Source of the DNA: an uncultured Fibrobacterota bacterium
GTDB taxonomy: Bacteria > Fibrobacterota > CAYVZU01
DNA: 62,470 nt
Assembly: GCA_964455935.1 (NCBI GenBank)
Contig: CAYVZU010000009.1
Span: 1 to 62,470 of the forward strand
Direction of reading: 5' to 3'
Shown here: one piece after another, positions 2,438 to 40,106 of the stretch
Layout: every line of letters starts with the position of its first letter
Numbering within the stretch: position 1 is the first letter of the stretch
The notes under the pieces: generated by a model
The model's database searches: none
Told to the model about the DNA's origin: nothing
The model's input: only the letters and a program-made list of their open reading frames with translations
Program-made: the position numbers and the translations under genes

Positions 2438-2648
2438 ATAAACCCCAATACTATTGTTAGTAGTTATTCATTCTTATTTTTATTTGCAATTTGCCCTGCA
2501 TTACACATTCCCAAACATCTGTTCATACTCCCCGCTTTATTAAATAAATGAAATTTAGCTGAGGAGATAGGATCAATCCATATTCAAAGCAACGTTCTCC
2601 TTGGTTAATAATATCGGGTCAGGTAATATATTTGATCTGAGAAGTTCT

Positions 2649-4622: not shown

Positions 4623-4661
4623 AGTTGCTCCCCCTGGATGGTTATGGTCACTATCTATGCT

Positions 4662-5459
4662 CAGTTGTATCAGGTTAAAGTATGGGAAAAAGAGGGGCTA
4701 CGGACCTATTTTCTGTCGGTGTATGTGAAGCAAACGACGGAAAAAGGAGGTAGCCCTGCTGAGAAATACTGTTTTCGGCCAGATAATGCAACTCCTTTGG
4801 CAACGGGAGTTGCCAAAGGACAGCATTCTGACTATCGACCTGGCTACATTGTTTTCGGATGGCTCTTTTCTCTGCAATCGCAAGGGGTCACCTTCATTAT
4901 TCGAGCCAAGAGCAACCTGGCCTGCAAAATTCTCGGACAGCATAAAAAACCGAACACGAAGCGAGATATTATCAGTGATCAACTCATTGAATTTACAAAC
5001 CATTACGAAAGCAAAGCGTACCCGGAAACTCTTCGACTAATCCGATACCGGTACACGGACAAGAATGGCAACGAAAAGGAAATCGCGGTCCTGACAAATA
5101 ACATGACCCTGGCGGCCTCCACCATTGCGGCTTTATACAAGGGACGTTGGGAAATTGAGACCTTCTTTCGTTGGATCAAACAAAACTTGCGGATCAAGTC
5201 CTTCATCGGCACAAGCCAGAATGCCGTGATGACGCAGGTCTGGGTTGCCATGATCCTTTACCTGCTGCTTTCCTTTATCAAGTTCCAGACGCGATTCACT
5301 GCTCCGATGTCGGAATTATTGCGAATCATCCGAGAAATCCTCCTGGATACCAGGAGCCTGATCGAATACTTACGGCTGAACTGGGCTCAGTTCATCAAAA
5401 TACGGGAAGGTCCCGTTCAATTATCCTTGGTATGAGACACTTTCAACCGGACACGACTG
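4662..5459 (+). mobile_element. Internally deleted IS4-family insertion sequence (about 800 bp) with both terminal inverted repeats
   Basis: Left end CAGTTGTATCAGGTTAAA (4662) matches the reverse complement of the right end, CAGTCGTGTCCGGTTGAA (ends 5459). It encloses the C-terminal part of a DDE transposase. Confidence 0.8.
4786..5435 (+). pseudogene. IS4-family DDE transposase, N-terminally deleted and frameshifted
   Basis: Contains the IS4 signature YKGRWEIETFFRWIKQNL. The upstream LPKDSILTID and GYIVFGW segments are in different frames (1-bp loss near 4840 at the D-x-G-Y motif), and the N-terminal half is missing. Confidence 0.85.
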
Positions 5460-14952: not shown

Positions 14953-16125
14953 ATGCCGCCATGGATCCCGGTGCTTCCGCTTTTGCTGGCCGGCTTGTGC
15001 TTTGGCGCCATCACAAAACGCGAACGGGGCGACAACCTGTATCAGACAATCTCGGCCAACACAATGGGAAAAGGGAATCTATGGCTCAGCGCGCAATTAA
15101 TGGGCTTTATCTGGGACAATTCGTTGACCGCCAAACAGGGCGGGGGGCAATTGAAGATCTTTCCGTCGCTCGAGGGTCGCTACGGCATTTTTCAATTTCT
15201 GCAGGCCCGGTTCTATTCGCGCCTGCTTAGCTATGGATTCCAGCCCGGCTATGTGGGCGCCGAACTCAAGACGACCATACCCAACAATATGGCCATCCGG
15301 TTTCTGGGGTTGGGATTGGCCGTGCAATACGAACGCGGGTTGCTGACGGAATTCTCGAGCATCGGGGGCACCCGGTTTGGGGCCACGGGGTTCTCGCCCG
15401 AGGGACTGATCTACGAGTCCGGCTCCACAAATTTCATTCTGGCCGCGGATTTCGATTTTCTGGCCCTCTCGTCCTATACGCCGCTGACGCTTTATGCCAA
15501 TGCGGGGTATGCCCTGCCCAACGATGGCGCGTATTCCCAGTTGGGACAATTTCTGATGCGCACCGGAATCGAGTACAAAGGCATCGGCGCGGATTTTTTT
15601 ACGGAGTTCTGGATGAATGCGCTTAACAACTTTCGCGAGCCCTTTTTGGTGGAGAACCTCCCGCATCCGCGCCGCTACTTTGTGCATTTTTCGGAAAATG
15701 CGTGGTTCATCACGGCGGGAGCGCGGATGCGCTACGAGAGCGGCCTGACGACCTTCGCCAACATTTCGCTGCGGCCCAAAGCGCTTGTGTCCGACCCGGG
15801 CGCCCCCATCGAAGCGGACAGGCTTGGCGAAGCCGCCGTTCAGAGCATGGAAAACAGCACCGAAGTCAATGCCGGATTTTCGCCGTTCTATGCGGACTGG
15901 ATGCTGCAAGGAGGAATCGCATACCCGATCCGTTACGCGCAGCCGTCCTCGGAAATCTACCGGGGATTTCTGCTTAAGAAGAATGAAAAACGCAAGAAGG
16001 TGATTGATATCGATGAGAAAGTGAAGGCCTCCGGCACGAATGCGGAGGAAGAGGAATCGAAGAAGCGCCTGGAGCAGATCGAGGAACGAAAAAAGAAGGT
16101 TATGGATGGGATCATCCTGGACTAA
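14953..16125 (+). CDS. Putative outer-membrane beta-barrel protein with C-terminal coiled coil (paralog B)
   Basis: ATG 14953 gives a signal peptide (MPPWIPVLPLLLAGLCFG). Aromatic-rich strands, tail EESKKRLEQIEERKKK. Paralog of 13706. Confidence 0.65.
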   Translation: MPPWIPVLPLLLAGLCFGAITKRERGDNLYQTISANTMGKGNLWLSAQLMGFIWDNSLTAKQGGGQLKIFPSLEGRYGIFQFLQARFYSRLLSYGFQPGYVGAELKTTIPNNMAIRFLGLGLAVQYERGLLTEFSSIGGTRFGATGFSPEGLIYESGSTNFILAADFDFLALSSYTPLTLYANAGYALPNDGAYSQLGQFLMRTGIEYKGIGADFFTEFWMNALNNFREPFLVENLPHPRRYFVHFSENAWFITAGARMRYESGLTTFANISLRPKALVSDPGAPIEADRLGEAAVQSMENSTEVNAGFSPFYADWMLQGGIAYPIRYAQPSSEIYRGFLLKKNEKRKKVIDIDEKVKASGTNAEEEESKKRLEQIEERKKKVMDGIILD

Positions 16126-16213
16126 CCTGCTGGAGCGCAGCGCAAGAGGCCTGCTCGGCATTGGCCGGCCGCAACCGATCCGCCCTGGCGGATTGCATTC
16201 CGGGTGGCGGCCC

Positions 16214-19200
16214 ATGCCATGCCTTTTGCGATGCGCTCTGTTAATTGCAGGATTGTCCGCCATGGTTTTGGCGGCTCCCGGGGATTCCACAGCCGCCGCG
16301 GCGACCGTGGCGCGTCCGGACTCCGCGGCCGGATCGGATTCCTCCGCGCAGCCCGAAAAAAAACCGAATGTCTCGAAGGCCGGGCCCGGTTCCGCGGACG
16401 CAGCCCCGGCGAAGCAGGGATTCCTGGCGCCGGTCCGCCGCGCCCTGAAGCGGCTGATCAAGATCCGCAGCGACTCGGTCTCGGTGGACGACCGCATCCT
16501 GACGCGAACCGAGAAAAGCGCCATGCGCCTGAGCGAAGAACAATGGAAACTCAAGGTGGTCTTCGGCGAAATGGACCGCCTTGCCACGGTTCTTCAGGAT
16601 ATGCGCGATCTTCAGCTGTATCCGGCCTCCCTGACCCGGACCAATCCCAAGTGGAGTGTGGCGTTCGACAAGAAGCTGGAGAAAAAAGAGAAGGAGATCA
16701 AGGAAATCCGCTCGCGTGTGGATGCACTAAGCCGGCCCCTTCTCGACGCGGTCGCGATTCTGCGCGAGATGACCATGGGCGAATTCAACCGGGACATGGT
16801 CGACATTCTTGACCAGGAAAACCGGGATCGGACCGTGGTCATTCTGCAGGTCAAGCGGGAAATCAACGCCCAGTGGGAGACCATTGGAAAGTTGTTCCAT
16901 GACGTATGGGCCGTCGCGGGACTCGAATACCCGCGGATCGAGAGCCAGGCGGGATTCGACGCCGAGTTCTTCGCCATCCTCTACTCGAACCTGGGCCGCA
17001 ACTCGGACCTGTTCTACGACAAACTGCGGGTATTCAAAGATACTCTGGCCGCGCGCGGGACCCAGGATACCTGGCGCAAAATGGCCGCCGTTGATCTGGC
17101 CCGAATTCAGGAACGCCTGCAAGCCGGTCTCTACGAAATTTCGGCGCTCGAACTGCAGAATCTCATTGAGCGCTACAACGGACGAATCGAGATCGGCGCC
17201 CTTTATTACCTCTACGGGAAAAGCCTTCTTCTCCAGGGACGCCACCGCGAAGCGCAGGAGACCTTCGCCAAAGTTGCGGCCGGCTCCAACTACCGTTCGC
17301 GGGCACTGTTGGGTCAATTGCAGGCCCTTTTCCTGCTCGACGACTTTCCGGGCGTTCTGGCGCAGTTTGGTGTCGAATGGCTCGATACCAATCTAACGGC
17401 CGGCCAGCGCAACTTCGCGATTCTCATGGGCGCGCAGGCGGCCTATCGCACGGCCCGGTATGACAGTGTAATCAACTTTGTGACCGCGGCCCGGGCAGAC
17501 CGCAAATACTATGCGGAACTGGTGTACGCACTGGCCCAGGTCTATCTGATCAAGGGCGACCAGGCCACGGCCCAGAAGCTGTGGGAGAAGGTCCTTTCAC
17601 TGCCGGCCTCGGCCCGCGGAGACGCCGCCCTGAATAATCGCACCACTCTCATGCTGGCGTATCTCGCCTACGAACAGGGCAAATACGAACAGGCCCTGAA
17701 TCTGTTCTTTAAGATTGCCGACGACCCCCGGTTCTTCGCCGATGCTCTATACGGAATTGTCTGGTGCTATATGAAACTGGGCAATCCCAATGAAGCCGAG
17801 ATCGCCCTTCGAAAAATGGTCAACCAGAATCCGGACAACCCGTTGGCCGTGGAAGGCATTCTGCTCTTGGGCAAGAAAATCGCGGCCCAGGCCGAACTGG
17901 AGTGGAACTACAGCGCCTTCTGCCGCGAAGAAGCCGTGCGCATTCGGGAGCTCTCCGAGAGGCTGGAACGCCGCAGGGCCGATGGGGCGTCGGCGACCGT
18001 GCTCAACGAAGCCGCGGCCCAACTGGATACGCTGGAGCAGCGTCATTCGAAGCGCAAGCCCCTGCGGCGCGACCAGATTTCGCAACTCTTCAGCAGGTCG
18101 CTTGAAATTTGCGATATGGTCGTGGCCAACTACAAATCAGGCATGTACCTGGAAACCCAGGCGGCGGGCCGGCGCGAAAACCTGATCCGGCAGCTCTCCG
18201 AACTGCAAGCACGAACCGAGGCGCAACGCCGCAGCGTGGCCGCCATGGAGGTCAGGGCAACCGAAACAGCCCAACGCGCCGATGTGGCCACGATCAAGGA
18301 CGCCGTGCAGCGGGCTCGAATCTTCAAGATCAGCGTCATGATGCGCCAGCAGAACTGGGAAACCGAGAATGCGGACCAGGTCCTGATCAGCCTCAATGCC
18401 CGCATCGACTCACTGCGAAAAGAAGCGACTACGTCCGCCGACAGCGTTGCGAAAGCCGCGGCCCGCAAGGGGGTCGCCCGCTATCAGAAAGCCAGGGGTG
18501 AGTTCGTGATTGTCACCGAGCAGGAGAAAGCGGCGCGGCGAAGCCGGATCATTGATGTGATCGAGCGCTGTGGAAAGGAATACCGGCTTACGGGCGATCA
18601 GGAGCAATACCTTCTTTTTCAGTTGGCCGAACTCCGTTACGACGAGGCCAAAGATGCGTTTTTGGCGGAACTGGCCCGCTATGACGAAGCGCTGGTCCGG
18701 TTCGACAGCCTGGCCACCCTGGCCAAGACCCGGGATATCCCGGCGCCCGAGCCGCCCGTAGAGCCCAAGCCCGAATACGGCCCCTGCATGGCTATTTTTC
18801 AGGATCTGATCTCCCGCTACCCCGATGGGGTCTACACGGGGAGCGCCCTATACTCGCTCGCATTCTGTTACAACGATCTGGGCCGCGATACGGTGGCCCG
18901 GGAGCATTTCGAAAAACTGGCGCAGAAGTTTCCCCAGAACCCGCATGCCGCCCAGGCGTGCATGGCCGTGGGCGAATTCTGGTTTGACCGGGCCGAATTG
19001 GAAAAGTCGGTGGCCGCCTATTCGAAAGTGCTCACCTATGCCGAGAGCGAGTGGTTCGACGAAGCCATTTACAAGCTGGGGTGGTCCTACTACCGCCTTT
19101 CGAAAACCAAGAAAGCGATCAGCTCGTTCGTGTATCTGATGTCCGACAACGGATTGAACCTGGGCAAGGAGTCCGTATCCAAAACCAAATCGCTTCTGGA

Positions 19201-19918
19201 AAAGGAATCGATCGACTACATCGCCATCAGTTTTGCCGAGGAAGACACGACCTGGCAGGGCGGCATCGAGAAAGCAAAGGCCTTCCTGGGCCGCATCCGG
19301 GATGACCGCACCGGGATGCGGATTCTGCACAAACTCGCCGATGTGTACCGGGCCCAGGGGACCGAGGCGAGTCTTAAGCTCGCCCGCAAAACGTATGAGA
19401 CCCTGCTGGACATGTTTCCGTATTACGACAACAATCCGCAGGTTGAGCTGGACCTGATCGCCGTGCTCGAAAAGCAGGGCGTCAACGTTGACATCAATGC
19501 CTCGCGCATGGAAATTTTCCGGCGCTATAACCATCGCAGTTCCTGGGCCAAAAGCAAATCGGACGATCGCGTGGTGGCCCGGGGCGACTCCATTTCCAGC
19601 AGCGCGTTGTTCGAAGCCGCGCGGCGATTCGCCCTGGATGCGGCCCAGAACAACGACGTAGCCATCTACAAGCAGGCCATGGATGCCTACCGCCGGTTTA
19701 TCGACACCTATCCGGGGGACACCCGCTCGGCCGATTCGCATTACAACATTGCCGAAATTCTTTTCAGCCTGGGCCAATACCAAAATGCGGCGCAGGAATA
19801 TATGCGGGTGTCGCGAATCTACCAGAAAAGCACGCATCAGGAGACGGCCGCCTGGAATGCCATTGTCTCGGCCCAAAACTTCAAAAAGCTAAGGCTGCAA
19901 GCCGAGGCGCAGCAATAG
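16214..19918 (+). CDS. Large periplasmic TPR protein with coiled coils (GltD/GltE-like)
   Basis: Signal peptide from ATG 16214. Many TPR motifs (ALYSLAFCY, AIYKLGWSYY, SHYNIAEILF) and a GltD-like EKESIDYIAISFAE segment. Confidence 0.8.
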   Translation: MPCLLRCALLIAGLSAMVLAAPGDSTAAAATVARPDSAAGSDSSAQPEKKPNVSKAGPGSADAAPAKQGFLAPVRRALKRLIKIRSDSVSVDDRILTRTEKSAMRLSEEQWKLKVVFGEMDRLATVLQDMRDLQLYPASLTRTNPKWSVAFDKKLEKKEKEIKEIRSRVDALSRPLLDAVAILREMTMGEFNRDMVDILDQENRDRTVVILQVKREINAQWETIGKLFHDVWAVAGLEYPRIESQAGFDAEFFAILYSNLGRNSDLFYDKLRVFKDTLAARGTQDTWRKMAAVDLARIQERLQAGLYEISALELQNLIERYNGRIEIGALYYLYGKSLLLQGRHREAQETFAKVAAGSNYRSRALLGQLQALFLLDDFPGVLAQFGVEWLDTNLTAGQRNFAILMGAQAAYRTARYDSVINFVTAARADRKYYAELVYALAQVYLIKGDQATAQKLWEKVLSLPASARGDAALNNRTTLMLAYLAYEQGKYEQALNLFFKIADDPRFFADALYGIVWCYMKLGNPNEAEIALRKMVNQNPDNPLAVEGILLLGKKIAAQAELEWNYSAFCREEAVRIRELSERLERRRADGASATVLNEAAAQLDTLEQRHSKRKPLRRDQISQLFSRSLEICDMVVANYKSGMYLETQAAGRRENLIRQLSELQARTEAQRRSVAAMEVRATETAQRADVATIKDAVQRARIFKISVMMRQQNWETENADQVLISLNARIDSLRKEATTSADSVAKAAARKGVARYQKARGEFVIVTEQEKAARRSRIIDVIERCGKEYRLTGDQEQYLLFQLAELRYDEAKDAFLAELARYDEALVRFDSLATLAKTRDIPAPEPPVEPKPEYGPCMAIFQDLISRYPDGVYTGSALYSLAFCYNDLGRDTVAREHFEKLAQKFPQNPHAAQACMAVGEFWFDRAELEKSVAAYSKVLTYAESEWFDEAIYKLGWSYYRLSKTKKAISSFVYLMSDNGLNLGKESVSKTKSLLEKESIDYIAISFAEEDTTWQGGIEKAKAFLGRIRDDRTGMRILHKLADVYRAQGTEASLKLARKTYETLLDMFPYYDNNPQVELDLIAVLEKQGVNVDINASRMEIFRRYNHRSSWAKSKSDDRVVARGDSISSSALFEAARRFALDAAQNNDVAIYKQAMDAYRRFIDTYPGDTRSADSHYNIAEILFSLGQYQNAAQEYMRVSRIYQKSTHQETAAWNAIVSAQNFKKLRLQAEAQQ

Positions 19919-23167: not shown

Positions 23168-23578
23168 ATGAAGACAAAACACAAACTTGGGCATGTAGTC
23201 CAATCCATCCTTCATCCTTCATCCCTCATCCTCGTTGTGACGGCCGCCCTGTTGACGATTTCCGCGGCTCCGCCCCGGCCATCTGCAGCTCCGGCATCCA
23301 AACCGGCCAAGCCCGCCTCCGCGGCAGCCCCCAAAACCGCGGCGCCCGACACCGCGGCCAAATCGGACGACCGGCAGAGCTTCGTACTGCGACGGCCCGG
23401 CGAAATCACCTTCACGACCGGCGCAGTGATCGAGGGCAAAATCGAGAAGCCGCAAGTCATGATTATTCTGCCCAAAGAAAAAATACAGGCCGACTCGATC
23501 ATCTTCGATCAGAGCTTCCGCGCGCAAATGCTGGAGCCCCTTGATATTCAGAGCGTGCGGGCAACGGAGATGGAATAG
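23168..23578 (+). CDS. CglF/GltF-like small exported protein
   Basis: Signal peptide, Ala/Pro linker, then ITFTTGAVIEGKIEKPQVMIILPK...F...L, which resembles the IEGxxxKP core of CglF/GltF. Sits between the TPR genes and the motor genes. Confidence 0.7.
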   Translation: MKTKHKLGHVVQSILHPSSLILVVTAALLTISAAPPRPSAAPASKPAKPASAAAPKTAAPDTAAKSDDRQSFVLRRPGEITFTTGAVIEGKIEKPQVMIILPKEKIQADSIIFDQSFRAQMLEPLDIQSVRATEME

Positions 23579-23675: not shown

Positions 23676-24317
23676 ATGTTTAGCGCGGAATCCATTGCCC
23701 GGTTTTTCAAAGAGGGTGGCATCTTCATGTACGTGATCGCGGGGGTGTCGGCCCTTGCCCTCGGCGTGTTGCTGGAACGGATTTTTTATTATCTGGTCCG
23801 CTGCCGCATTAACGCCAAGGCCCTGTTGGCCGAAGTCATGCGGCTCATCCGCAGCGACAAGATCGAGGAAGCCCGTAAAGTCTGCGCCTCCAGCCGAGCG
23901 CCGCTGGCCCAGATTTTGGAGGCCGGCGTTTATCATTTTCAGCAGGGGGAATCGGACCAGGAAATCCAGAATGCGGTGGACGAAGTCGCGCTTCGCGAAC
24001 TGCCCAGAATCAACCGGCGCACGCACTACCTTTCATTGTTCGCCAACGTCGCCACCCTGCTTGGACTGCTGGGGACCATCCAGGGCCTGATCTCATCATT
24101 TGCGGCCTTGGCCACGGCCGAGGCTTCACAGAAAGCGACTCTTTTGGCCGGCGGCATTGCCGTGGCCATGAATACCACGGCCTTGGGACTGGTGGTGGCC
24201 ATCCCCTGCATGGTGGCATTTTCGATTCTGGGCTCAAAAGCCAATACGATTATCGAGGAAATTGACGAGAGTTCCGTCCGGATTTTGAATTTCCTTTTTT
24301 CGCAGCGCCGCCACTGA
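23676..24317 (+). CDS. MotA/TolQ/ExbB proton-channel protein (AglR-like)
   Basis: GGIFMY...LER and RTHYLSLFANVATLLGLLGTIQGLI...AMNTTALGLVVAIP. RBS ggaggt. Confidence 0.93.
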   Translation: MFSAESIARFFKEGGIFMYVIAGVSALALGVLLERIFYYLVRCRINAKALLAEVMRLIRSDKIEEARKVCASSRAPLAQILEAGVYHFQQGESDQEIQNAVDEVALRELPRINRRTHYLSLFANVATLLGLLGTIQGLISSFAALATAEASQKATLLAGGIAVAMNTTALGLVVAIPCMVAFSILGSKANTIIEEIDESSVRILNFLFSQRRH

Positions 24318-24338: not shown

Positions 24339-24854
24339 ATGGCAGAACTCGAAAAAATCCAAGGCAAAGCCGAGGGCAAGCCGGCGACGAAAAGAGCCTT
24401 GCGCGGCGCCGGGGCCGGCGGGCTCGAAACCGTCGATCTCGACGTAACCCCGGTCATGAACCTTTTTCTGGTCTTGATTCCGTTCCTTGTCTCCATGGCC
24501 GTGTTCACGCATCTGGCCATCGTGGAGTTTTCGCTCCCGCCGGGCGTTTCAGACCAGAGCGAAGCCGACCCCACAACCCCGGATCACATCGACATCTCGG
24601 TGGTCCTTACCGACAAAGGCTACACCATTATGGGTTCCGGACAGAAGCTGGAACTGGTGCCCAAATCGGGCGAACGCTACGATTTCGAAGCCCTGATCCG
24701 GCAGCTCAAGGCCATCAAATACAAATACCCGCAGGAAGAAAGCATTGTTCTGGTCGTGGAGCCTTCCGTGCTCTACGAGGACATCATCCATTTCATGGAC
24801 AAGTGCCGCGAAAGCCAGTTTCCCAACATTGGCTTGTCGGGAGGATTTCAATGA
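24339..24854 (+). CDS. ExbD/TolR protein (AglQ-like), with Asn at the conserved TM Asp
   Basis: LDVTPVMNLFLVLIPFL transmembrane segment and ExbD periplasmic fold (VLYEDIIHFMD). Confidence 0.88.
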   Translation: MAELEKIQGKAEGKPATKRALRGAGAGGLETVDLDVTPVMNLFLVLIPFLVSMAVFTHLAIVEFSLPPGVSDQSEADPTTPDHIDISVVLTDKGYTIMGSGQKLELVPKSGERYDFEALIRQLKAIKYKYPQEESIVLVVEPSVLYEDIIHFMDKCRESQFPNIGLSGGFQ

Positions 24855-25177
24855 GTCTGCATATCAAGCGAAAGATCAACAGGGATTTCGCGATCATCAA
24901 GCTTTCGGGAGAGGCCACCTCGGAAGAGGTCAGCAAACTTTCCAAAGCCATTGAGGAAAGCCGCGTCAAAGGGTTCCGCAAGATCGCCGTGGATGTGGCG
25001 GAAACCGTTTTTCTCGATAGCTCGGCTCTTGGCGTTCTGATTCTCAACTACAAGATGCTATCGAAGGAGAATGGCGACCTCTGTCTGCTGAGCCCCACCC
25101 TATACATCCGCGATCTGCTGCGCAATTCGAATCTCGATACGGTCTTCCGGCTCGTGGACAGCGAAGAGGATTTATGA
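24851..25177 (+). CDS. STAS-domain protein (anti-sigma-factor antagonist family)
   Basis: IAVDVAETVFLDSSALGVL, with the conserved phosphorylatable Ser. ATGA overlaps with both flanking exbD genes. Confidence 0.9.
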   Translation: MSLHIKRKINRDFAIIKLSGEATSEEVSKLSKAIEESRVKGFRKIAVDVAETVFLDSSALGVLILNYKMLSKENGDLCLLSPTLYIRDLLRNSNLDTVFRLVDSEEDL

Positions 25178-25686
25178 GCTTTCCGGCCTGCAAATCGTCC
25201 GGAATGAAGCCGCGCAAAACACGTGCGCGTACGCCCAAGGCCTTTAAGGTCCAGCTAACCTCTTTGGTGGATGTAATGACCATTTTGCTTGTGTTCCTGA
25301 TAAAAAGCTTCTCGGCCGAAGGCAACGTCATGAACGTTCCGCAGGATATCAAGCTTCCGGCTTCCACGGCCCAGAAGCAGCCAAAACCCGCAATCATTCT
25401 CTCGATCAACAATCGGATTCTGCTGGCTGAGGGCGACCCCGTTGCGGACATGACCGAGATGATAAAAACCGACGATCTCTTGATCGAGCCGCTTTACAAC
25501 TGGCTTGGAAAACGGCGCTCGATGACCGAGAAGATCGCGCAATATTCCACAACAACGGAATTCAAAGGCGAGATCGCGATCCAGGGCGACCGCAAAATTC
25601 CATTCCGGCTTCTGCAGAAGATCATGTTTACCTGTGGCCGGGTGGGCTATAGCAACTTTTCGCTGGCCGTCATCCAGGAGGAGTAG
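25174..25686 (+). CDS. ExbD/TolR protein (AglS-like)
   Basis: LTSLVDVMTILLVFLIKSFSAEG, LPAST, IQGDRKIPFRLLQKIMFTC...FSLAV. Alternative start at 25204. Confidence 0.9.
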   Translation: MSFPACKSSGMKPRKTRARTPKAFKVQLTSLVDVMTILLVFLIKSFSAEGNVMNVPQDIKLPASTAQKQPKPAIILSINNRILLAEGDPVADMTEMIKTDDLLIEPLYNWLGKRRSMTEKIAQYSTTTEFKGEIAIQGDRKIPFRLLQKIMFTCGRVGYSNFSLAVIQEE

Positions 25687-26764: not shown

Positions 26765-27715
26765 ATGGTCGTGACTTCCCCATCGATTCGCCGGGCCGGG
26801 TTTCACCGGCGGGGTTGTTGTTTCCCGGTTCTAATCGGGCTGTTTTTGGCGGCCGCCGTTCTGGCGCCGCTGCCCTGCGCGGCGGGTATCCTGCGCGCGG
26901 GCGACGCGCTTGAGATCTTTGTGGCCGATCACCCGGAACTGACCCGAAAAGTGCTGGTCTCCGCCGAGGGCACGCTCGACTATCCGTTCTTCAGCGATCG
27001 CTCGGTGCTGGGCCTAACCCCGGAGGAGGTCTCAGACCTGCTTATGTTTCGCTTGGCCAAGAGCATCACCAACCCATTTGTCCTCGTCACGCCTTTGCGT
27101 TCGCTGCCCATCACGGTCCGCGTGCTGGGTCAGGTGAAGAAGCCGGGTCAGATTCAGCTTCCAGTGGGGTCCAGCATGCAGGAGGTCCTGATGGCCGCCG
27201 AAGGGCCCACCGATTTCGCCAATCTTGCCGATGTGCGCCTGATCCGGGACAAAGCGACCGAGGCCGATGCCGTGCGGGTGGATTTCCGCAAGTTCATGGA
27301 GACCGGCAACATCTCCCTGCTTCCCGAGATCCGCAACAACGACACCGTGATCCTGCTGGCGAGCCCGCGCGACATGAAAGTGAAAGTCCTGGGATGCGTA
27401 AGCCGGCCCGGCTACTATTCCCTGCAGGGCGAGACCACAATTTTCGATGCCATCTACATGGCCGGCGGACCCGAAGACAAGGCCAACCTTTCCAAGATCC
27501 GGCATGTGCTGCAGACCCTGGACGGCAAGAATGTCGATCAGATTGTGGATCTTCAGAAGTATATTGATAAAGGACGCATGGACGAGATCCCCAAAGTCAA
27601 TGCGGGGGACGCCATTATTGTTTACAAAAAAATGTTCACCTGGGGAACGTTCCTGACATTGGTGCGGGATGCGCTGATGCTGTTTACCGCCTATCAGGTT
27701 TTCGTGGGGAGCTAA
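26765..27715 (+). CDS. wza: Polysaccharide export OPX/Wza protein (Poly_export + 2 SLBB)
   Basis: LRAGDALEI...VSAEGTLDYPF, VRVLGQVKKPG, VKVLGCVSRPG and a C-terminal amphipathic helix. RBS aaggag. Only 20 nt after the TonB-like gene. Confidence 0.88.
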   Translation: MVVTSPSIRRAGFHRRGCCFPVLIGLFLAAAVLAPLPCAAGILRAGDALEIFVADHPELTRKVLVSAEGTLDYPFFSDRSVLGLTPEEVSDLLMFRLAKSITNPFVLVTPLRSLPITVRVLGQVKKPGQIQLPVGSSMQEVLMAAEGPTDFANLADVRLIRDKATEADAVRVDFRKFMETGNISLLPEIRNNDTVILLASPRDMKVKVLGCVSRPGYYSLQGETTIFDAIYMAGGPEDKANLSKIRHVLQTLDGKNVDQIVDLQKYIDKGRMDEIPKVNAGDAIIVYKKMFTWGTFLTLVRDALMLFTAYQVFVGS

Positions 27716-29905
27716 ATGGGAACCCTCTCGCGCGCGCAGGGCATTGGAGGCCGCGAGGTGCGGCTGCAGGACTACCTGGGTATCCTGCAGCGCCGGTATC
27801 TTAGTATCGTCGTCACCTTTCTGGCCGTGGCGGGCTCGACCGGTTTTTTTATCTGGCAGAAACCCGATCTGTATCGGGCCTTTTCAACACTCGTCATTGA
27901 GGAAGAACAGTCGGCCTTTGCGTTGGCGGGACTGGCCGAGGCCGGCCGTCCCCTGGGATTCTACCAAGGGCTCCTCAGCAGCCGGTCGTATCTCGAAGAG
28001 ACGCTTGATTCCATCGGCATCTGGACCTTCCGCGACGTTCTGCCGGATCCCCTCAGAAACGATACATTGGCCATGTTGGCCTATATTCGCGACCACATCT
28101 CTCTAGGGCCAACCAATTTTCAGTCGCTCCAGCAATTCACGGCTACGGCGGCCACCAGCGAACTGGCATACCGCATGGCCCTCTATGGCACGCTGGTATT
28201 TCGAAAGCGATGCGGCGAGGTGGAGGCCGAACAGTCTCGCGAGACGGTGATCCAACTCGAGAAGCAGATCACGATCATCCGCAAGAAACTGGAAGAGGCC
28301 GAGAAGGATTTTCAGGCCTATCGCGACCGCAGCGGATTGAGCAACGAAGGCATGGACGCGGAACTCGCGCACCTGCAGGAGGTTTATTTTAAAGAACGCA
28401 CCGAACGAACGCTGCGGGAAGCCGAATACGAGGCCACCAAGGGCCAGCTCGAAATTCTCGAACGCAAAATTACTCCCCCCTCGGAAAGCGAGACCGAAGA
28501 GGTCCGCAAGCTGCGCAACACGTTGCGCGAATTGGAACGCGAGAAACTTCGCCTGTTGTCGCTCAACATCACCATTTCGCCCAGTTCCCCCCTGCAGAGC
28601 GAGATCAACACCATCGAACAGCAGATCCTGCAAGCCAAGGGAAAAAGCAACAGCGCGCGCGAGATGACCAATCCGGGTCTCGTCAACCAGTGGCAGGCGC
28701 TGCGAAGCAAGGTGGCCAGCCAGGAACTGGAAATCGAATTCTCGAAAAAGCGGCTTGCCTCGTACCGGTCCTCGATCGAAGAATACCGGGCCCAACACCC
28801 CGAAATCGTGGACCAGATCTATGAGCTGTCCCGGCTGGACCGTGCTCGAAAAATCTATGAGGAAACCTACAACCTTTTGCTGGGCAAGGTGGAGGAAGCC
28901 AAGATCCGGGGAATTTCCGAGTCCGGCCGCATCAAGATCATCGATCCCGCTTACCGCCCCGGCAGTCCGATCCCAAAAAATTCCGGACGGTTCTATGCCG
29001 CCGGGATTGTCATCGGAATTCTGTTGGGTTTCGGGCTGGCCTTTTTTGTCGAGTTCAACGATACCACGGTCAAGACCAGTGAAGACATCGAACGTTTTCT
29101 TAATCTGCCGGTGATCGGCACAATCCCCCATATTGTGGTGCCCAAGACAGAGGCCCTGGAGCTCCGGCGCTCAGCCAGCAAATCCCGAAAGAAGGAAGAA
29201 CAAACCCGGTATCCCAAGAACCTGCTTAATTTTTCGAACGATGAATCCATCGCGTCGGAGGCCTACCGCAGTCTCCGCACCAACCTGCTGTATTCCAGTC
29301 CCGACAAGCCGATTCGGTCACTGGTGATGACCAGTTCGGGGCCGGGCGAAGGAAAATCGCTCACCGTGACCAATGTCGCCCTAGCCTACGCCCAGATGGG
29401 TTCGAAGGTCCTTCTGGTGGACACGGACCTGCGCCGGCCGGTGGTGCATCACCTGTTCCAGATCCGTCGCGAGCCGGGGTTTTGCGAGCTCTTCCTTCCC
29501 AATCCCGACTGGAGCCAGATTGTGCGGCCGTCTCCAGTCTCCAACCTCAGCATCATCCCGGCCGGTCGGTTTACGCCCAGCCCAGCCGAGCTGATCGGCG
29601 CCCACAAAATGGATAACGTGCTCGAGCAGATGAAAGAACGGTTTGATATCATCTTTTTCGACACGCCGCCTCTGGTCGCGGTCACCGATGCCACGCTGTT
29701 AAGCAAGAAAGTGGACGGCGTGGTCCTTGTCGTCAAGTCGCGGAGAGCGGAACGTGAACTCACCAAAAGAGCCGTTGGCATTCTATCAAGCGTGGGCGTG
29801 AAGGTGATCGGCGCGGTGCTTAATGACATCGATTTATCGCACCGCTATTCGGGCTACGGTTACTACAAATACTACTATCATTACTACCGTTCGAAGAAGG
29901 ATTAG
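27716..29905 (+). CDS. wzc: Wzc polysaccharide co-polymerase / BY-kinase
   Basis: Two TMs flanking a coiled coil, EAYRSLRTNL, Walker A GPGEGKS, VDTDLRRP, DTPP, C-terminal Tyr cluster YSGYGYYKYYYHYY. Confidence 0.95.
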   Translation: MGTLSRAQGIGGREVRLQDYLGILQRRYLSIVVTFLAVAGSTGFFIWQKPDLYRAFSTLVIEEEQSAFALAGLAEAGRPLGFYQGLLSSRSYLEETLDSIGIWTFRDVLPDPLRNDTLAMLAYIRDHISLGPTNFQSLQQFTATAATSELAYRMALYGTLVFRKRCGEVEAEQSRETVIQLEKQITIIRKKLEEAEKDFQAYRDRSGLSNEGMDAELAHLQEVYFKERTERTLREAEYEATKGQLEILERKITPPSESETEEVRKLRNTLRELEREKLRLLSLNITISPSSPLQSEINTIEQQILQAKGKSNSAREMTNPGLVNQWQALRSKVASQELEIEFSKKRLASYRSSIEEYRAQHPEIVDQIYELSRLDRARKIYEETYNLLLGKVEEAKIRGISESGRIKIIDPAYRPGSPIPKNSGRFYAAGIVIGILLGFGLAFFVEFNDTTVKTSEDIERFLNLPVIGTIPHIVVPKTEALELRRSASKSRKKEEQTRYPKNLLNFSNDESIASEAYRSLRTNLLYSSPDKPIRSLVMTSSGPGEGKSLTVTNVALAYAQMGSKVLLVDTDLRRPVVHHLFQIRREPGFCELFLPNPDWSQIVRPSPVSNLSIIPAGRFTPSPAELIGAHKMDNVLEQMKERFDIIFFDTPPLVAVTDATLLSKKVDGVVLVVKSRRAERELTKRAVGILSSVGVKVIGAVLNDIDLSHRYSGYGYYKYYYHYYRSKKD

Positions 29906-33266: not shown

Positions 33267-36200
33267 ATGAGAACGCGTATTTCGGCCTTAGGAATTTGTT
33301 TGTCGATTTTAGCAAGTCTTTCGATGGCGGCAATCGGTGATTCGATCTGCAGCATTCAATCCAAGCCGGGGACTTGTGTAGAGGCAAAAGACAAAGATAC
33401 GGTTTTTGTTCCCGCAGACATGATGTTGTTCGGAAAGGAAGTGTCGTTCTGCCCCGATACGGTTCCCGGAACGCGCGGAAAAGTGCAGATCATCATGGTG
33501 CTCGACAAATCCGGGAGTATGGACGGTACCGACCCCAATCGAAGACTCCCCACAAGAGCCGATAGCGTCGTCGAACAGGTCCGCAGAATGAGTCCCGACA
33601 GCAAAATCGGAATTATCCTGATGCCCGGAAGAGCGGGTGGCACAACACCACAGGGACTTCCTCCAGTCTCGCTCAATAACGCGGCCAATGTGGGCTTGCT
33701 TCATACCTGGATCAACTACGCCAGAACCCATGGCGGTTACACCCCATATGGCGCCAGTCTCGATACGGCCCTGACTTACTTTGGCCGGCTGCCGGCAACC
33801 GATACAAACCGTGTACTCATTTTTCTTTCGGATGGAGAACCGTGCTTAGGGGGGACTCCTTGTACCGATCCCAGGTATGACTTATTTGTGAGCGCCGGCC
33901 GACGGGCCCTGCTCCCGCCCACCTATACGATTTACTATTATGCCACCAGCCCAAGCGCGACCGCGGCAGGTGTTCTCCAAAGCCTGGCCGCCAATGCAGA
34001 CGCGGGCAGGGGCGCATACTACCCGGCCCCCAACGCGGATGCGCTCGATGCGGTGTTCGATGATATTCTTCGCACAATTCAACCGACCCGTACCGTCGAA
34101 AACTTCTTCATGCTCAACACAATGACCGGCCAAACCGTCATGGCCAATACGAGCGATACGGCCAAGAAGGTGATGGTGCCGTTCGAACAAATATATCTGC
34201 AGCCCGGCGCCAACACGGTTCAATTCTATTACAAAACCAAGGGCGACACTTCAGCGCCCACGGAAAACGACATCTTCAAAACGGTCACCCTTTTCCGCCG
34301 GCCAGGCAGCACAACATCGGGTCAGAACGCGGAGTTCGACAGTACATTCATGGATGTGTGCTTCGAAAAAAGTAGCATAACGTTCACCAATGCCAGCTAC
34401 GTTTCGATGCCCGCGGGTGCGGTTTATGACCCCAATTTCCTCAATGTTTATGTCGGCGGCCGCCGCGGGCCGGGGACAAGCACAACGGCGGCCGACACGG
34501 CCACTGTTGTCATCACATCACGAAGCGGCGACGCGGAACGAATCACAATCACCGAGACGGGGCTCAGCACGAATGCGTACCGCGGGCTTGTGCGGCTGAC
34601 CAACAGCAGTTCCCGCGTTCAGTACGACAACAATCTCCAGGTGTTGGCCATCGATACGCTGTACCTGCGGTACCTAAATCCCGAGTATTATTCCAACGGA
34701 CAGTACTACGATATGAGCTTGGACACGATTGTCGTTCGCTACATTGGAAAGGTCAAATCGATTGTGCTGTACGAGGAACCGGGTAATCCTGCCTCGCTCG
34801 TACCGCTGGCGAACCCAACTACTCCAATCGAGGTGGTGGTGACCGAGCCTCAGACCCTCTGGGCCAAGGGTTTTGACGGCAATGGCTACTGGCTGGGCAA
34901 TCCCACCACGGGTCTTGACACGATAAAGGTCCGCTGGACCACAACCGGGTTTAAAGGGACAATCCTGTTGATAGGCACGGCCGATTCCGCGTACAAGCTG
35001 TTTGCGCCGCAATTGGCTTATGATACGGGATATGTGATCGCCTCGAAGGACACCGGCGGCGGAGTAATCAGGGACTCTATTCGCGTCATCACCAGACCCG
35101 GTCCGCCTGTGCGGTTGAGCATCGAAGACCAGCCCAATGGGCTTTCGGTGGCTTCCATCGACACACTTGTGGTGCCTGCCGGAAAGCTCAGCGATACGGT
35201 TTACGCGGTCGGCAGGGACACATTCGATAACTTCACGGGGAATATCGCAAGCACCTGGTCGAAATCGCTTGCAAACACGATCTTCTCCGCCTCACCCGGG
35301 CCGGACACAAAAAGTACCGTTACGCGAACACCGGCAAATGCAACGGGAATAGGATTCCTGCGGGCACTGGCGGCTTCCTTACCGGCCGAGACAATCCAGG
35401 TGAAGCTGGTTGACTATTATTATACGGCCCTGCAAATCAATGAAGTCCCGGGCGGAAATATCACTGACAAGGCCATAAACACGGGCCAGAGCGTCTCCTT
35501 GGTGGCCTATGGTCTAAGGTCAACTGATGGCAATTGGGAACCGGTCAATGTCACCTGGAGCCTCACGAACCTGGTGGATCAAAATGGCGCGGCCCCAACA
35601 GGAACGCCTACGTATACATTCGAGCCGAAATCACCGGGAAGCGGACCGGGCAATACCGGAACGATCACCGCTACCTTGACGCAGTATGGCGCGGGGAGCA
35701 CGCTGACCGATGTCGTGAACATGACCGTCACGCCGCAGCCGCCCACTCGCTATACAACCGTCCTTAGCCCCACGCGGTTGGCTGCGGGCGGAACCATGAA
35801 CGTGGCGCTCACGGCCTGGAACGACGATGGCGTGTACCCGGTCAATCTGGACATGAGCATGTGCTGGTATTCGGACCAGGTGAAACTGCCGTCGAATACC
35901 ATTCCGCAAACCATCGCGGGCAACAACATGGGGAATGCCGCGGCCCCCGCATGTTTCCTTGTTCATTTCACCAATGGCGTATCCTCGCTCAACACCGTGT
36001 TGACGATCGTAACACCCGTGTATGGCAGCCGGCTGCACTTTTATGATACGCGCGGCATTACCACGGTTGACAGCACAGGCACCTTTATTGTGACGCCGGG
36101 GGCGCTTGCGGCCCTTCAAATCGTGAACAGCCAAGGCGCGGAAATGCTCGCACAAACCACAAACAATAAAAACGGCCGGATTGAATTGTATCTGCAAGGA

Positions 36201-37445
36201 TACGATGGTTACGGAAACCTGATTTCAAACACAATCGGTACCTGGTCCACAACGTCGCCGCTGACGGATAACCAGTTTGTCAGAACATTGCCGAATCCCG
36301 GACCCGAGGCGATATATACGCCCGTGGAAGACCCCGGCGATCATTGCGGCCTCATTCGAGTTGATAACGGGGCAATTTGGGATACAATCAGTGTCTGCGT
36401 TGTAGATTCACTCCTGGCCCGAATGGAACCTGTCATCACCCGCGATACGGATGGCGACGGCTACCTGGACCGGCTGGATGTACACCTGAATGAGCCTGTA
36501 AAAATCCTGTCCAGCGCCAATGTTGAGGCGGCTTTTGTAGTGTCCGGCCAGGTTGCGGGCAGGACGGTAACCTGGAGAGTAATTGGAATTACCGGCGTCA
36601 ACTCGACAACCGGCGATTACCAGTTGACACTCGAAGAACATGCCGATTCCCTTGAAACCGGCGCCACCCCAACCGTCACCTTCATTCCCTGGGCAGGCAT
36701 GGTGGGCATGCAGCCGGGTACGTATCAGTCCGTTGACGGGGCCGGGCCCGTGATCAAGACCGTTGTTCTTAACGACCAAGGCACCACCGAGCCGGCCGAT
36801 GATCAGATTACGGTCACGTGGAGCGAACCCCTTGGCGGGTGGAATTCGACCGCATTATCGGCCAATCAGGTTCTGACCGTCTGGAAACCGATTACAGATT
36901 CCCTGCCGGGTTTGCTGACCGGCTGCCCAATTTATCCGCCGTATGGAATACGCGCGATTGTCGATGTCCTAAACGGGGCCATGCTCGAGACCAACCACTG
37001 GTTCTCGATCGACTCCATTCAAGGCGGAGTCAAAGACATTTACAACAACTATTCGCTAAAGACGAACCGGAAGGTGCAGCTCCAGATTGTGGGCCCGGCG
37101 AAACCTCGCATAATAATCTATCCCAATCCGATCAACTACGAACGTCTGAAAAATCCTGGATCCGGCTACCAGCCCCACATCAGCCTGTTGATCTACGATA
37201 CCTCGGAGGTATCGATTATGATTTATGACCTTGCAGGCAATCTGGTCCGGAAGTTTGGTCCCATGACCCTGGCCAACAACATCGGCGTGACCGGGACACG
37301 GGCGCGTACACATGTTCTTGATTTCTGGGATGGGACCAACGGTCGCGGTCGCATTGTAAACCGCGGCGGTTATATTGCCAAGGCGCTCGTACGGCCTCTC
37401 GGCGGCAAGGCCCAGCCCCTTTTCTTCAAGCTCGCGGTCCAATAG
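33267..37445 (+). CDS. Large secreted VWA-domain adhesin with Ig-like repeats and T9SS/FlgD-type C-terminal domain
   Basis: 1392 aa. Signal peptide, MIDAS DKSGS...TPY...LSDGEP, Thr-rich beta-sandwich repeats, DTDGDGYLD Ca-binding loop, tail IYPNP...IYDLAGNLVR...WDGTNGRG. Confidence 0.85.
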   Translation: MRTRISALGICLSILASLSMAAIGDSICSIQSKPGTCVEAKDKDTVFVPADMMLFGKEVSFCPDTVPGTRGKVQIIMVLDKSGSMDGTDPNRRLPTRADSVVEQVRRMSPDSKIGIILMPGRAGGTTPQGLPPVSLNNAANVGLLHTWINYARTHGGYTPYGASLDTALTYFGRLPATDTNRVLIFLSDGEPCLGGTPCTDPRYDLFVSAGRRALLPPTYTIYYYATSPSATAAGVLQSLAANADAGRGAYYPAPNADALDAVFDDILRTIQPTRTVENFFMLNTMTGQTVMANTSDTAKKVMVPFEQIYLQPGANTVQFYYKTKGDTSAPTENDIFKTVTLFRRPGSTTSGQNAEFDSTFMDVCFEKSSITFTNASYVSMPAGAVYDPNFLNVYVGGRRGPGTSTTAADTATVVITSRSGDAERITITETGLSTNAYRGLVRLTNSSSRVQYDNNLQVLAIDTLYLRYLNPEYYSNGQYYDMSLDTIVVRYIGKVKSIVLYEEPGNPASLVPLANPTTPIEVVVTEPQTLWAKGFDGNGYWLGNPTTGLDTIKVRWTTTGFKGTILLIGTADSAYKLFAPQLAYDTGYVIASKDTGGGVIRDSIRVITRPGPPVRLSIEDQPNGLSVASIDTLVVPAGKLSDTVYAVGRDTFDNFTGNIASTWSKSLANTIFSASPGPDTKSTVTRTPANATGIGFLRALAASLPAETIQVKLVDYYYTALQINEVPGGNITDKAINTGQSVSLVAYGLRSTDGNWEPVNVTWSLTNLVDQNGAAPTGTPTYTFEPKSPGSGPGNTGTITATLTQYGAGSTLTDVVNMTVTPQPPTRYTTVLSPTRLAAGGTMNVALTAWNDDGVYPVNLDMSMCWYSDQVKLPSNTIPQTIAGNNMGNAAAPACFLVHFTNGVSSLNTVLTIVTPVYGSRLHFYDTRGITTVDSTGTFIVTPGALAALQIVNSQGAEMLAQTTNNKNGRIELYLQGYDGYGNLISNTIGTWSTTSPLTDNQFVRTLPNPGPEAIYTPVEDPGDHCGLIRVDNGAIWDTISVCVVDSLLARMEPVITRDTDGDGYLDRLDVHLNEPVKILSSANVEAAFVVSGQVAGRTVTWRVIGITGVNSTTGDYQLTLEEHADSLETGATPTVTFIPWAGMVGMQPGTYQSVDGAGPVIKTVVLNDQGTTEPADDQITVTWSEPLGGWNSTALSANQVLTVWKPITDSLPGLLTGCPIYPPYGIRAIVDVLNGAMLETNHWFSIDSIQGGVKDIYNNYSLKTNRKVQLQIVGPAKPRIIIYPNPINYERLKNPGSGYQPHISLLIYDTSEVSIMIYDLAGNLVRKFGPMTLANNIGVTGTRARTHVLDFWDGTNGRGRIVNRGGYIAKALVRPLGGKAQPLFFKLAVQ

Positions 37446-39446: not shown

Positions 39447-40106
39447 ATGGAATTTCTGCATCATGAGAATACGCTTGTCGCCATGCTTCCGCCGCATTTC
39501 ACGGTGCTTGAAGCCAAAGGCTTCGGCCAGGAAATGCGCGCGCGCGCAGCGCATAGCGGCCTCGAGATCGTTCTGGATGCAACCAACCTGGTGTATTTGG
39601 ATTCGTTCGGAATCGGCAGTATCGTCGAGGTATTGCGCTCAGTGCGGGCCCAAGGGGGAGATTTGCGCGTGCGCAACCTAAGCGGCGAGCCGCTGAACCT
39701 GTTCCAGCGCTCTGGGCTGGAACGGATCATTCCGCTGGAAGAGGGCGAAAGCACGCAGCCGGATCTTTCCCTGCGCTATGGATTCGAAACGCACGGCCGC
39801 CTGCAGGTATTCCATTGCGCCGGCATGGTCACTTTTACCCATGACGGGGCCAAGTTCGAGGCTGCTTTGCAGCAAGGCTTGGCCAGCCACGATGCTCTTT
39901 TGCTCGATCTTTCGGAACTGAAATACATGGACAGCGAAACCATCGGTCAGCTTGCCCGGCTTCATTGCGAAGCCAAGGCCCAGGGCAAACGGTTCGGGTA
40001 CTGCAACGCGAACCCGCTGGTGGCCGACCTGCTCAAGCGGCTTGGGGTTGCCAGCATCGTGCCCGGATACGATTCCCTGGAACAGGCCATAAAGGCCTTG
40101 TCATAG
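39447..40106 (+). CDS. Tandem (double) STAS-domain anti-sigma-factor antagonist
   Basis: Two STAS repeats: LDATNLVYLDSFGIG and LDLSELKYMDSETIG. Confidence 0.85.
   Translation: MEFLHHENTLVAMLPPHFTVLEAKGFGQEMRARAAHSGLEIVLDATNLVYLDSFGIGSIVEVLRSVRAQGGDLRVRNLSGEPLNLFQRSGLERIIPLEEGESTQPDLSLRYGFETHGRLQVFHCAGMVTFTHDGAKFEAALQQGLASHDALLLDLSELKYMDSETIGQLARLHCEAKAQGKRFGYCNANPLVADLLKRLGVASIVPGYDSLEQAIKALS

Follow-up and report, generated by a model that had tools for sequence, protein, structure and literature searches.

Why should a gene for a protein of the anti-sigma factor antagonist type lie between the two ExbD genes of a proton-channel motor? The question is raised by a contig of an uncultured Fibrobacterota bacterium (GenBank assembly GCA_964455935.1, contig CAYVZU010000009.1), all 62,470 nucleotides of which were analyzed and are referred to here as the window. 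In it, the gene for a small STAS (sulfate transporter and anti-sigma factor antagonist) protein separates the genes for two ExbD/TolR-like subunits, ExbD1 and ExbD2, downstream of a gene for an ExbB/TolQ/AglR-like subunit (Table 1). The best explanation, to which we assign a probability of roughly 0.45, is that the STAS protein serves the motor as a dedicated accessory regulator: it would be synthesized with the ExbD subunits and act on the motor from the cytoplasmic side, and phosphorylation of Ser57 would probably gate it. Each part comes from a known family, and the novelty lies in their stable combination, a STAS protein inside the exbD pair of a motor that resembles the Agl/Glt core and is linked to Wza/Wzc.

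The protein between the ExbD subunits is of the SpoIIAA type

The STAS open reading frame (ORF) scored above the cut-offs of Pfam PF01740 (46.2 bits, E value 4.2e-12, cut-off 22.6) and of the NCBIfam anti-sigma factor antagonist model TIGR00377 (61 bits, cut-off 53.45), and it did not reach that of the SpoIIAA equivalog TIGR02886 (48.3 bits versus 114.75). The AlphaFold2 model, computed from 31 orthologues, had a predicted local distance difference test score (pLDDT) of 92.4 and displayed the strand-helix order of SpoIIAA, with helix 2 beginning at Ser57. When the model was compared with solved structures by Foldseek, SpoIIAA in its complex with SpoIIAB (1th8_B, template modeling [TM] score 0.89, root-mean-square deviation [rmsd] 1.5), RsbV (6m36, TM 0.85-0.86), and TM1442 (1vc1, TM 0.91) were retrieved; over these matches (TM 0.85-0.91), the rmsd ranged from 1.4 to 1.6. 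Similarity to MlaB was lower, at TM 0.59-0.64. A profile of the STAS family searched against the Protein Data Bank (PDB) likewise gave TM1442 (7.6e-18) and SpoIIAA (6.5e-16), and the Asp-Ser pair of the family was aligned with Asp57-Ser58 of SpoIIAA (1th8_B). Ser58 of SpoIIAA is the phosphorylated residue, and helix 2 is the usual partner-binding helix of the STAS fold. As modeled, the protein adopts a canonical SpoIIAA-type fold in which the Asp-Ser site is placed where helix 2 begins. It shares with SpoIIAA, RsbV, and TM1442 the fold, the TIGR00377/PF01740 family, and the Asp-Ser pair at this place. Unlike the antagonists SpoIIAA and RsbV, it has no adjoining kinase, phosphatase, or sigma factor and is embedded between two ExbD genes.

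An initial annotation of the window had proposed that the STAS gene overlaps both neighbors by ATGA and keeps a DSS phosphorylation site. Both junctions were read directly in the sequence and agree with this description. At 24851-24854, the ATG of the STAS gene (24851-24853) overlaps the TGA of ExbD1 (24852-24854), and at 25174-25177, the ATG of ExbD2 (25174-25176) overlaps the TGA of the STAS gene (25175-25177). Shine-Dalgarno-like sequences are located 5 nt ahead of the STAS start codon (GGAGGA, 24840-24845) and 3 nt ahead of that of ExbD2 (AGAGGA, 25165-25170). The site is also present, since Asp56-Ser57-Ser58 are encoded at 25016-25024 (Asp56-Ser57 at 25016-25021). Through the overlapping stop and start codons, the STAS protein would be translated together with the two ExbD subunits.

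The position of the STAS gene is conserved in ten families

The gene-neighborhood comparison suggested in the initial annotation was carried out across the phylum. ExbD2 was searched over 296 genomes, one per species, of which 236 gave a match at an E value of ≤1e-20 (a tally that includes genome G262, which contributed to no other result). The best-match loci were fetched, and 62 loci, including the window, contained ExbB, ExbD1, and ExbD2 at more than 120 bits as well as a TonB-like gene. The STAS gene was found between the two ExbD genes in 43 of these 62 orthologous loci, distributed over 10 families (f1, f3, f4, f6, f7, f8, f9, f12, f13, and f15). Absence of the gene from this position in related loci, named in the initial annotation as grounds for refutation, was not the pattern observed. 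The 19 loci without it comprise all 12 loci of family f11, all five of f10, one of the four of f13 (G044), and one of f8 (G054). No STAS remnant was detected when every ORF of ≥25 aa was subjected to a profile search in 22 loci, which consisted of 12 STAS-less loci and 10 further fetched loci, two of the latter apparently paralogous.

The junctions were conserved as well. Between ExbD1 and the STAS gene, the overlap was 4 bp in 37 of the 42 other loci, 1 bp in four, and 11 bp in one; between the STAS gene and ExbD2, it was 4 bp in 36 and 1 bp in four, with a 3-nt gap in one locus and an in-frame TGA in ExbD2 in the last. The gene order TPR-small protein-ExbB-ExbD1-STAS-ExbD2-TonB-Wza was observed in 20 of 20 named motor-bearing contigs, allowing for contig ends, and in each of the 20 Fibrobacterota contigs of this set the gene for the 1,014-aa TPR protein precedes those of the motor. 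In a metagenome scan with ExbD2, the STAS gene lay directly upstream of ExbD2 in 41 of 45 informative orthologous contigs, with four lacking it; because of their overlap with the genome set, these contigs do not constitute independent evidence. In one locus (L036, from genome G063) and the matching metagenome contig L197, an in-frame TGA occurs in the ExbD2 N-terminal tail just past the STAS gene, and in metagenome contig L204, counted among the 41, the STAS gene is broken by several frameshifts. These interruptions reflect either errors in sequencing or ongoing decay.

The initial annotation had also stated that exbD genes are normally contiguous. This holds for the other ExbD pairs compared here: ExbD1 and ExbD2 adjoin each other in 27 of 27 paralog-type loci from metagenomes, and the partners are contiguous in all four other ExbD pairs of the window genome. 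None of the 69 STAS matches of that genome lies on a contig with one of these four pairs. A contig scan with a 12-row STAS alignment returned 35 loci, 34 in Fibrobacterota and one weak match in Anaerolineae without ExbD neighbors; the patterns used are specific to the sub-family and do not bear on absence elsewhere. Public contigs with the locus are assigned to Chitinispirillaceae, Chitinivibrionales, Fibrobacterota, and "Fibrobacter sp." metagenome-assembled genomes. The host lineage of the window is a Chitinivibrionia-like member of the Fibrobacterota without a close sequenced relative.

The STAS gene is under purifying selection and is retained after leaving the operon

The ratio of nonsynonymous to synonymous substitution rates (dN/dS) was 0.03-0.28 in 10 of 14 close STAS pairs, dS being saturated in the other four. 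Asp56, Ser57, Leu60, and Gly61 were invariant in 31 of 31 aligned members, and the Asp-Ser pair was present in 70 of the 70 top single-domain representatives. The sub-family is narrow: among 1.84 billion cluster representatives, 14 were retrieved at an E value of ≤1e-30, most of them exactly 108 aa long. The STAS gene has been passed on within the exbD pair in 10 families, and purifying selection has acted on it.

A quick IQ-TREE analysis of the concatenated motor proteins (900 columns, 62 loci, midpoint root) placed the 12 f11 loci apart from the remaining 50, with starred branches between the two sets; all 43 STAS-bearing loci were among the 50. At least five changes of STAS state are needed on this tree. 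Under midpoint rooting, the STAS gene would have been gained once and later removed from the locus in f10 (two placements), in G044, and in G054; the root was not inferred, so an early loss of the STAS gene in f11 is equally possible.

Removal from the locus was not always loss from the genome. All five f10 genomes keep a free-standing STAS gene; on the family profile, four of the proteins scored 118-129 bits, and that of G098 scored 88 bits over positions 23-108 only, a value within the range of free-standing paralogs. A His-Trp signature follows the Ser in all five, and on the STAS tree they grouped together (support 100/99) inside the main embedded clade (93/90). The f11 genomes contained nothing above 72 bits on this profile. 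Phe63 and Trp67, both in helix 2, are among the residues that set the embedded and relocated STAS family apart from its nearest paralogs. In three of the five f10 loci (L136, L137, and L143, from G102, G100, and G098, respectively), the relocated gene lies one or two genes from a flagellin gene (Flagellin_C), and in two of these three, a BsuPI-like protein is encoded beside it. The nearest free-standing paralog family (L008, L026, L027, and L138-L142) has the motif DSHG[LV]G[IV]I[IV]YY, together with a short insertion ahead of helix 3; in three of its loci, the STAS paralog is directly downstream of a gene for a conserved 347-438-aa protein whose end looks PilZ-like by eye only.

Could the gene be a mere passenger, one of many STAS paralogs that happened to land between the ExbD genes and has no role in the module? 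STAS genes are indeed very numerous in the window genome, and this one was lost or moved at least four times. A passenger would hardly be expected to persist over a depth of 10 families with such low dN/dS values, a mostly exact length of 108 aa, and preserved overlaps, or to be retained in the genome after leaving the operon, and we regard this explanation as very improbable. The distribution also speaks against an obligatory stoichiometric subunit: all 12 f11 loci are without the STAS gene, all five f10 genomes encode it elsewhere, and two further genomes have lost it. Since a whole sister clade does without the protein and one family encodes it at another locus, it does not appear to be an obligatory structural part of the motor.

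Cytoplasmic tails of the motor proteins may vary with the STAS gene

The extreme N-terminus of ExbD2 read MSFP[AV]SK in 42 of the 43 STAS-bearing loci, the exception being the locus with the in-frame TGA, and was followed by a basic stretch with a net charge of +6 to +9 over ~28 residues. The same motif was found in the five f10 loci and in G044. By contrast, all 12 f11 loci and G054 had no such motif and a tail shortened by ~9 residues. In the ExbD2 model, residues 1-28 were unstructured (pLDDT <50), and a helix extended from residue 30 to 49. A motif in the ExbD1 tail, AFP[AV]xKR, had the same distribution as that of ExbD2, and the C-terminal tail of ExbB, IEEIDESSVRxLNFLF, was changed in f11 and in G054. 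G054 (locus L080) is the one deep lineage that lost the STAS gene without a kept copy; its motor-protein branch measures 0.65 versus 0.15-0.20 in its sisters, and it lost the tail motifs of ExbD1, ExbD2, and ExbB together.

The motor resembles the Agl/Glt core complex and is genetically linked to polysaccharide export

The Agl/Glt "core complex" is described as aglR, aglQ, aglS, gltD, gltE, gltG, and gltC (Luciano et al. 2011, PMC3169522). The same paper describes it outside the myxobacteria as one cluster, including Fisuc_1892-1897 of Fibrobacter succinogenes, where its role is given as not known, and mentions an extra, unnamed core gene for non-myxobacteria. The window shares with this core one TolQ/ExbB-like and two ExbD/TolR-like subunits, a TonB-like protein of the AgmX/PglI type, and large TPR proteins, all encoded in one cluster. 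The first of the TPR proteins, with 1,292 aa, has the length tabulated for the GltD homologue of F. succinogenes (PMC3169522, Table S3). The 136-aa small protein encoded upstream of ExbB, which is syntenic throughout the clade, may correspond to the additional gene mentioned in that paper. The TonB-like protein scored 88.4 bits against NF033768, the AgmX/PglI C-terminal domain (cut-off 40), and its best full-length model was GltG, NF033760, at 107.7 bits, far under the cut-off of 650. The ExbB, ExbD, and TonB-like proteins passed the Pfam domain thresholds (Table 1), but none of the NCBIfam equivalogs for ExbB, ExbD, TonB, TolQ, or TolR reached its cut-off, all staying well under it (TolQ, 73.6 versus 221 bits; ExbB, 53 versus 206; ExbD, 26.6 versus 216; TolR, 28.4 versus 127).

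A Fibrobacter-type genome, G204, was used for comparison. The ORFs of its cluster, of 747, 1,292, 252 (212 from an internal start), 296, 164, and 308 aa, fit the lengths tabulated for Fisuc_1892-1897 (PMC3169522, Table S3). This cluster matched the ExbB, ExbD2, and TonB-like proteins of the window with 120, 84, and 51 bits, respectively, and contained no STAS gene. The Fibrobacter-type Agl/Glt core is a paralog of the window locus, and it is the window version that is tied to Wza/Wzc. It is reasonable to read the window module as a paralogous Agl/Glt-core-like motor on the strength of its architecture and one domain, the GltG-type TonB domain, rather than of a tree with Myxococcus proteins. 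The AglRQS-like label in the initial annotation is reasonable at this same level. Past the glycosyltransferase genes downstream of the motor, a 1,392-aa protein (33267-37445, + strand) carries an N-terminal VWA_2 domain and has no other family match; a VWA adhesin, CglB, is described as the surface coupler of the Myxococcus Glt machine (PMC9946355).

In the named contigs, the Wza-like gene after the motor genes is followed by the Wzc-like gene in 19 of 20, and the remaining contig (L088) stops inside wza. This arrangement allows for a STAS protein that acts on the export half, for example, by binding the Wzc-like protein at its P-loop kinase domain in the way that MlaB binds MlaF, with the motor genes as mere neighbors. 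Solved STAS subunits of transport ATPases do exist, the lipid transporter MlaFEDB being among the fold matches: MlaB, likewise a single-domain STAS protein encoded in the operon of its membrane machine, of which it is a permanent cytoplasmic subunit, is a precedent for a STAS protein acting on something other than a sigma-factor switch. It differs in that its partner is an ABC (ATP-binding cassette) ATPase and its machine is not a motor; the Pfam/NCBIfam annotation places no ABC transporter gene in the window cluster. MlaB is also a weaker fold match than SpoIIAA and RsbV (TM 0.59-0.64 versus 0.85-0.89). Moreover, the STAS gene is located between the ExbD genes and not beside wzc, the co-varying motifs are on motor proteins, and the STAS-less loci keep the Wza/Wzc order unchanged. 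Taken together, an action on the export half appears improbable to us.

The STAS protein as a candidate regulator of the motor

In the window genome (3.9 Mb), 69 STAS matches (67 over the cut-off), 16 HATPase_c_2 matches (nine over the cut-off, five of them at 56-82 bits), and six matches to SpoIIE-type PP2C phosphatases were found, and some of these kinase, phosphatase, and STAS genes form classical modules on other contigs, as judged by coordinates. Two ORFs, of 562 aa on contig C46 and 706 aa on C84, appear to be phosphatase-kinase fusions from their overlapping coordinates. Most STAS proteins of this genome are orphans. A further STAS gene of the window, ~10 kb downstream of the motor cluster and adjoining an amino-acid kinase/PUA gene, encodes a 219-aa protein with two tandem STAS domains (39447-40106, + strand; two stretches each matching PF01740 and PF13466; TIGR00377, 74.7 bits).

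These numbers bring to mind an ordinary partner switch, in which the STAS protein would antagonize a distant anti-sigma kinase of the RsbW type and the operon would set nothing more than its co-expression; the state of operon expression or of the envelope would then be relayed to transcription, with no contact with the motor. The closest relatives of the protein are all antagonists that bind anti-sigma kinases (SpoIIAA with SpoIIAB, 1th8; RsbV with RsbW, 6m36), 69 STAS matches against about five strong kinases amount to many-to-few wiring, the f10 gene lies at another locus, near a flagellin gene in three of five cases, and the motor of the sister clade needs no STAS protein. What such a switch leaves unexplained is the exact position between the ExbD genes, with overlapping codons, in 10 families, together with the erosion of the cytoplasmic tails of the motor where the STAS gene is absent; in addition, the window annotation contains no sigma or anti-sigma gene nearby. 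We therefore consider an ordinary antagonist unlikely, although it deserves to be kept in mind.

A regulator dedicated to the motor would account for these features. A functional link between the STAS protein and the motor is supported by the position kept in 43 of 62 loci, the overlaps, the purifying selection, and the invariant Asp-Ser pair, and the invariant Ser would fit a phosphorylation switch fed by a distant kinase. In this scheme, a SpoIIAA-type STAS protein would have been recruited as an accessory regulator of an Agl/Glt-core-like motor genetically tied to Wza/Wzc export. Produced along with the ExbD subunits, it would bind the motor from the cytoplasm, with the long basic tails of ExbD as the most likely docking site, and phosphorylation of Ser57 by a distant RsbW-type kinase, reversed by a PP2C phosphatase, would release or engage it. 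Motor activity, and hence polymer export or surface transport, could in this way be switched with no change in motor abundance. Complex prediction with ExbD1 residues 1-36, ExbD2 residues 1-30, and the STAS protein (31-row alignments each) gave 0.00 against a mark of 0.32; this run had no controls and counts neither as support nor as counter-evidence.

Several observations weigh against a dedicated regulator. The motor module persists without a STAS gene in the sister clade f11 (12 of 12) and in two genomes after its loss. There is no kinase, phosphatase, or sigma factor gene in the operon, and the annotated genes of the window include no partner-switch kinase or phosphatase. No ExbD-STAS fusion was found: among 7,994 candidates scored, four longer relatives were obtained at an E value of ≤1e-8, none with an ExbD domain, which is weak evidence. 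On the STAS tree, free-standing paralog families were placed among the embedded proteins, and holding the embedded and relocated proteins together as one clade cost 16.3 log-likelihood units (approximately unbiased test, p-AU 0.04), a marginal rejection on 108 columns. Either the paralogs arose from within the embedded family, or the history may be less simple than one recruitment.

The tails add further points on this side. The window's own ExbD1 motif is degenerate, KPATKR, and G044 lost the STAS gene yet keeps all tail motifs, on a short branch. On a tree built without the tail columns, there were three independent STAS contrasts, with the ExbD2 motif concordant in two and unchanged in one; because the sign test gave a p value of 0.5, the co-variation of tails and STAS gene counts as a suggestive lead that is not significant. 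Paralogous motors without a STAS gene have hydrophobic N-terminal ExbD motifs of their own (MSFLK..., LSLFRS..PPSD), so some of the conservation in the tails is probably due to the motor's own needs and may serve ExbB rather than the STAS protein. With three contrasts and related motifs in STAS-less paralogs, we rejected the tail motifs as proof of STAS binding.

A more specific version of the dedicated regulator is a clutch. One phosphorylation state of the STAS protein might clamp the basic tails of the ExbD heterodimer, with their FPxSK tips, at the exit of the ExbB pentamer and so stop or license 5:2 rotation, and this control might carry over to motor-driven polysaccharide export or surface transport. 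Taken as a whole, this joint proposal is speculative, and we think it doubtful. If true, motors of the Tol/Exb/Agl type would have in the STAS protein their first dedicated regulator subunit on the cytoplasmic side.

Relation to known motor control

The prevailing view is that Tol, Ton, and Agl motors are regulated chiefly at the level of expression and through periplasmic partners, and we know of no cytoplasmic switch protein for motors of the Tol/Exb/Agl type. On flagellar stators or rotors, the small cytoplasmic proteins YcgR, EpsE, and MotI act as brakes or clutches. They switch a proton-driven motor of the 5:2 type without changing its amount, which is the mode of action proposed here for the STAS protein; they differ from it in having unrelated folds, in acting on MotA or FliG, and in not being encoded between stator genes. 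The conserved position of the STAS gene between stator-like genes suggests a cytoplasmic regulator not previously described for this kind of motor. In a literature search of titles and the beginnings of abstracts, no report was found that pairs a STAS protein or an anti-sigma factor antagonist with an ExbD/ExbB/TolQ motor, and the main texts of PMC3169522, PMC12204202, and PMC4814513 contain no mention of STAS. Where STAS appears in PMC4488436, it is an author name and not the domain.

The STAS protein offers a concrete candidate regulator, for which Ser57 is the predicted site and the N-termini of the ExbD subunits are the predicted docking peptides. For the STAS families of Fibrobacterota and similar phyla, which are large and consist mostly of orphans, it would provide a link to a target that is not a sigma factor. 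It also provides a handle on the role of the Agl/Glt core complex outside gliding bacteria, here tied to Wza/Wzc polysaccharide export.

Features of the cluster and other genes in the window

The genes listed in Table 1 belong to one tight cluster on the + strand that extends from 16040 to ~33200, with glycosyltransferases and a sugar transferase encoded after the Wzc-like gene. The TonB-like gene starts with GTG and overlaps the ExbD2 stop codon by 1 nt. The 136-aa small protein had no Pfam or NCBIfam match above the cut-off. A sigma-54 promoter pattern matched twice against 5.4 matches expected, with none upstream of the operon, and the sigma-70 and terminator scans were at chance (promoter-like sites, 2 versus 6.4 expected; terminator-like sites, 27 versus 21.9 expected).

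Table 1. Coordinates of the motor cluster and of the tail segments discussed in the text (window numbering)
Feature	Position	Strand	Evidence
TPR protein, 1,292 aa, first cluster gene, GltD-like by size and repeats only	16040..19918	+	Pfam TPR families; NCBIfam YbgF-type repeats, 99.6 bits
TPR protein, 1,014 aa	19920..22964	+	Pfam TPR_6, TPR_2, others
Small protein, 136 aa, N-terminal hydrophobic segment, described as exported	23168..23578	+	phmmer; same place in relatives
ExbB/TolQ/AglR-like proton-channel subunit, 213 aa	23676..24317	+	PF01618, 100.5 bits
ExbB C-terminal cytoplasmic tail	~24249-24314	+	Tail comparison; co-varies with STAS
ExbD/TolR-like subunit 1 (ExbD1), 171 aa	24339..24854	+	PF02472, 52.1 bits
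ExbD1 N-terminal tail, degenerate motif KPATKR	~24378-24395	+	Tail alignment
STAS protein, single-domain SpoIIAA/RsbV type, 108 aa	24851..25177	+	Pfam, NCBIfam, AlphaFold2, Foldseek, PDB profile
ExbD/TolR-like subunit 2 (ExbD2), 170 aa	25174..25686	+	PF02472, 54.1 bits
ExbD2 N-terminal motif MSFPACKS	25174-25197	+	Tail alignment; tail ~28 aa, net charge +8
TonB-like protein, AgmX/PglI-type C-terminal domain (GltG-like), 352 aa	25686..26744	+	PF03544 TonB_C, 30.1 bits
Wza-like outer-membrane polysaccharide export protein	26765..27715 (start uncertain; longest ORF from 26669)	+	Poly_export and two SLBB domains
Wzc-like chain-length determinant/tyrosine autokinase	27716..29905	+	GNVR and P-loop domains; TIGR01007, 186.6 bits (cut-off 108)

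Elsewhere in the window, a protein with a type IX secretion system (T9SS) tail and an LpxC-FabZ fusion are encoded. A DDE transposase gene (4638-5435, + strand) adjoins the genes for two beta-helix proteins (278-4622, - strand), one of them with a T9SS C-terminal sorting domain. Four DNA sequencing runs were linked to the locus, all of them from one groundwater study.

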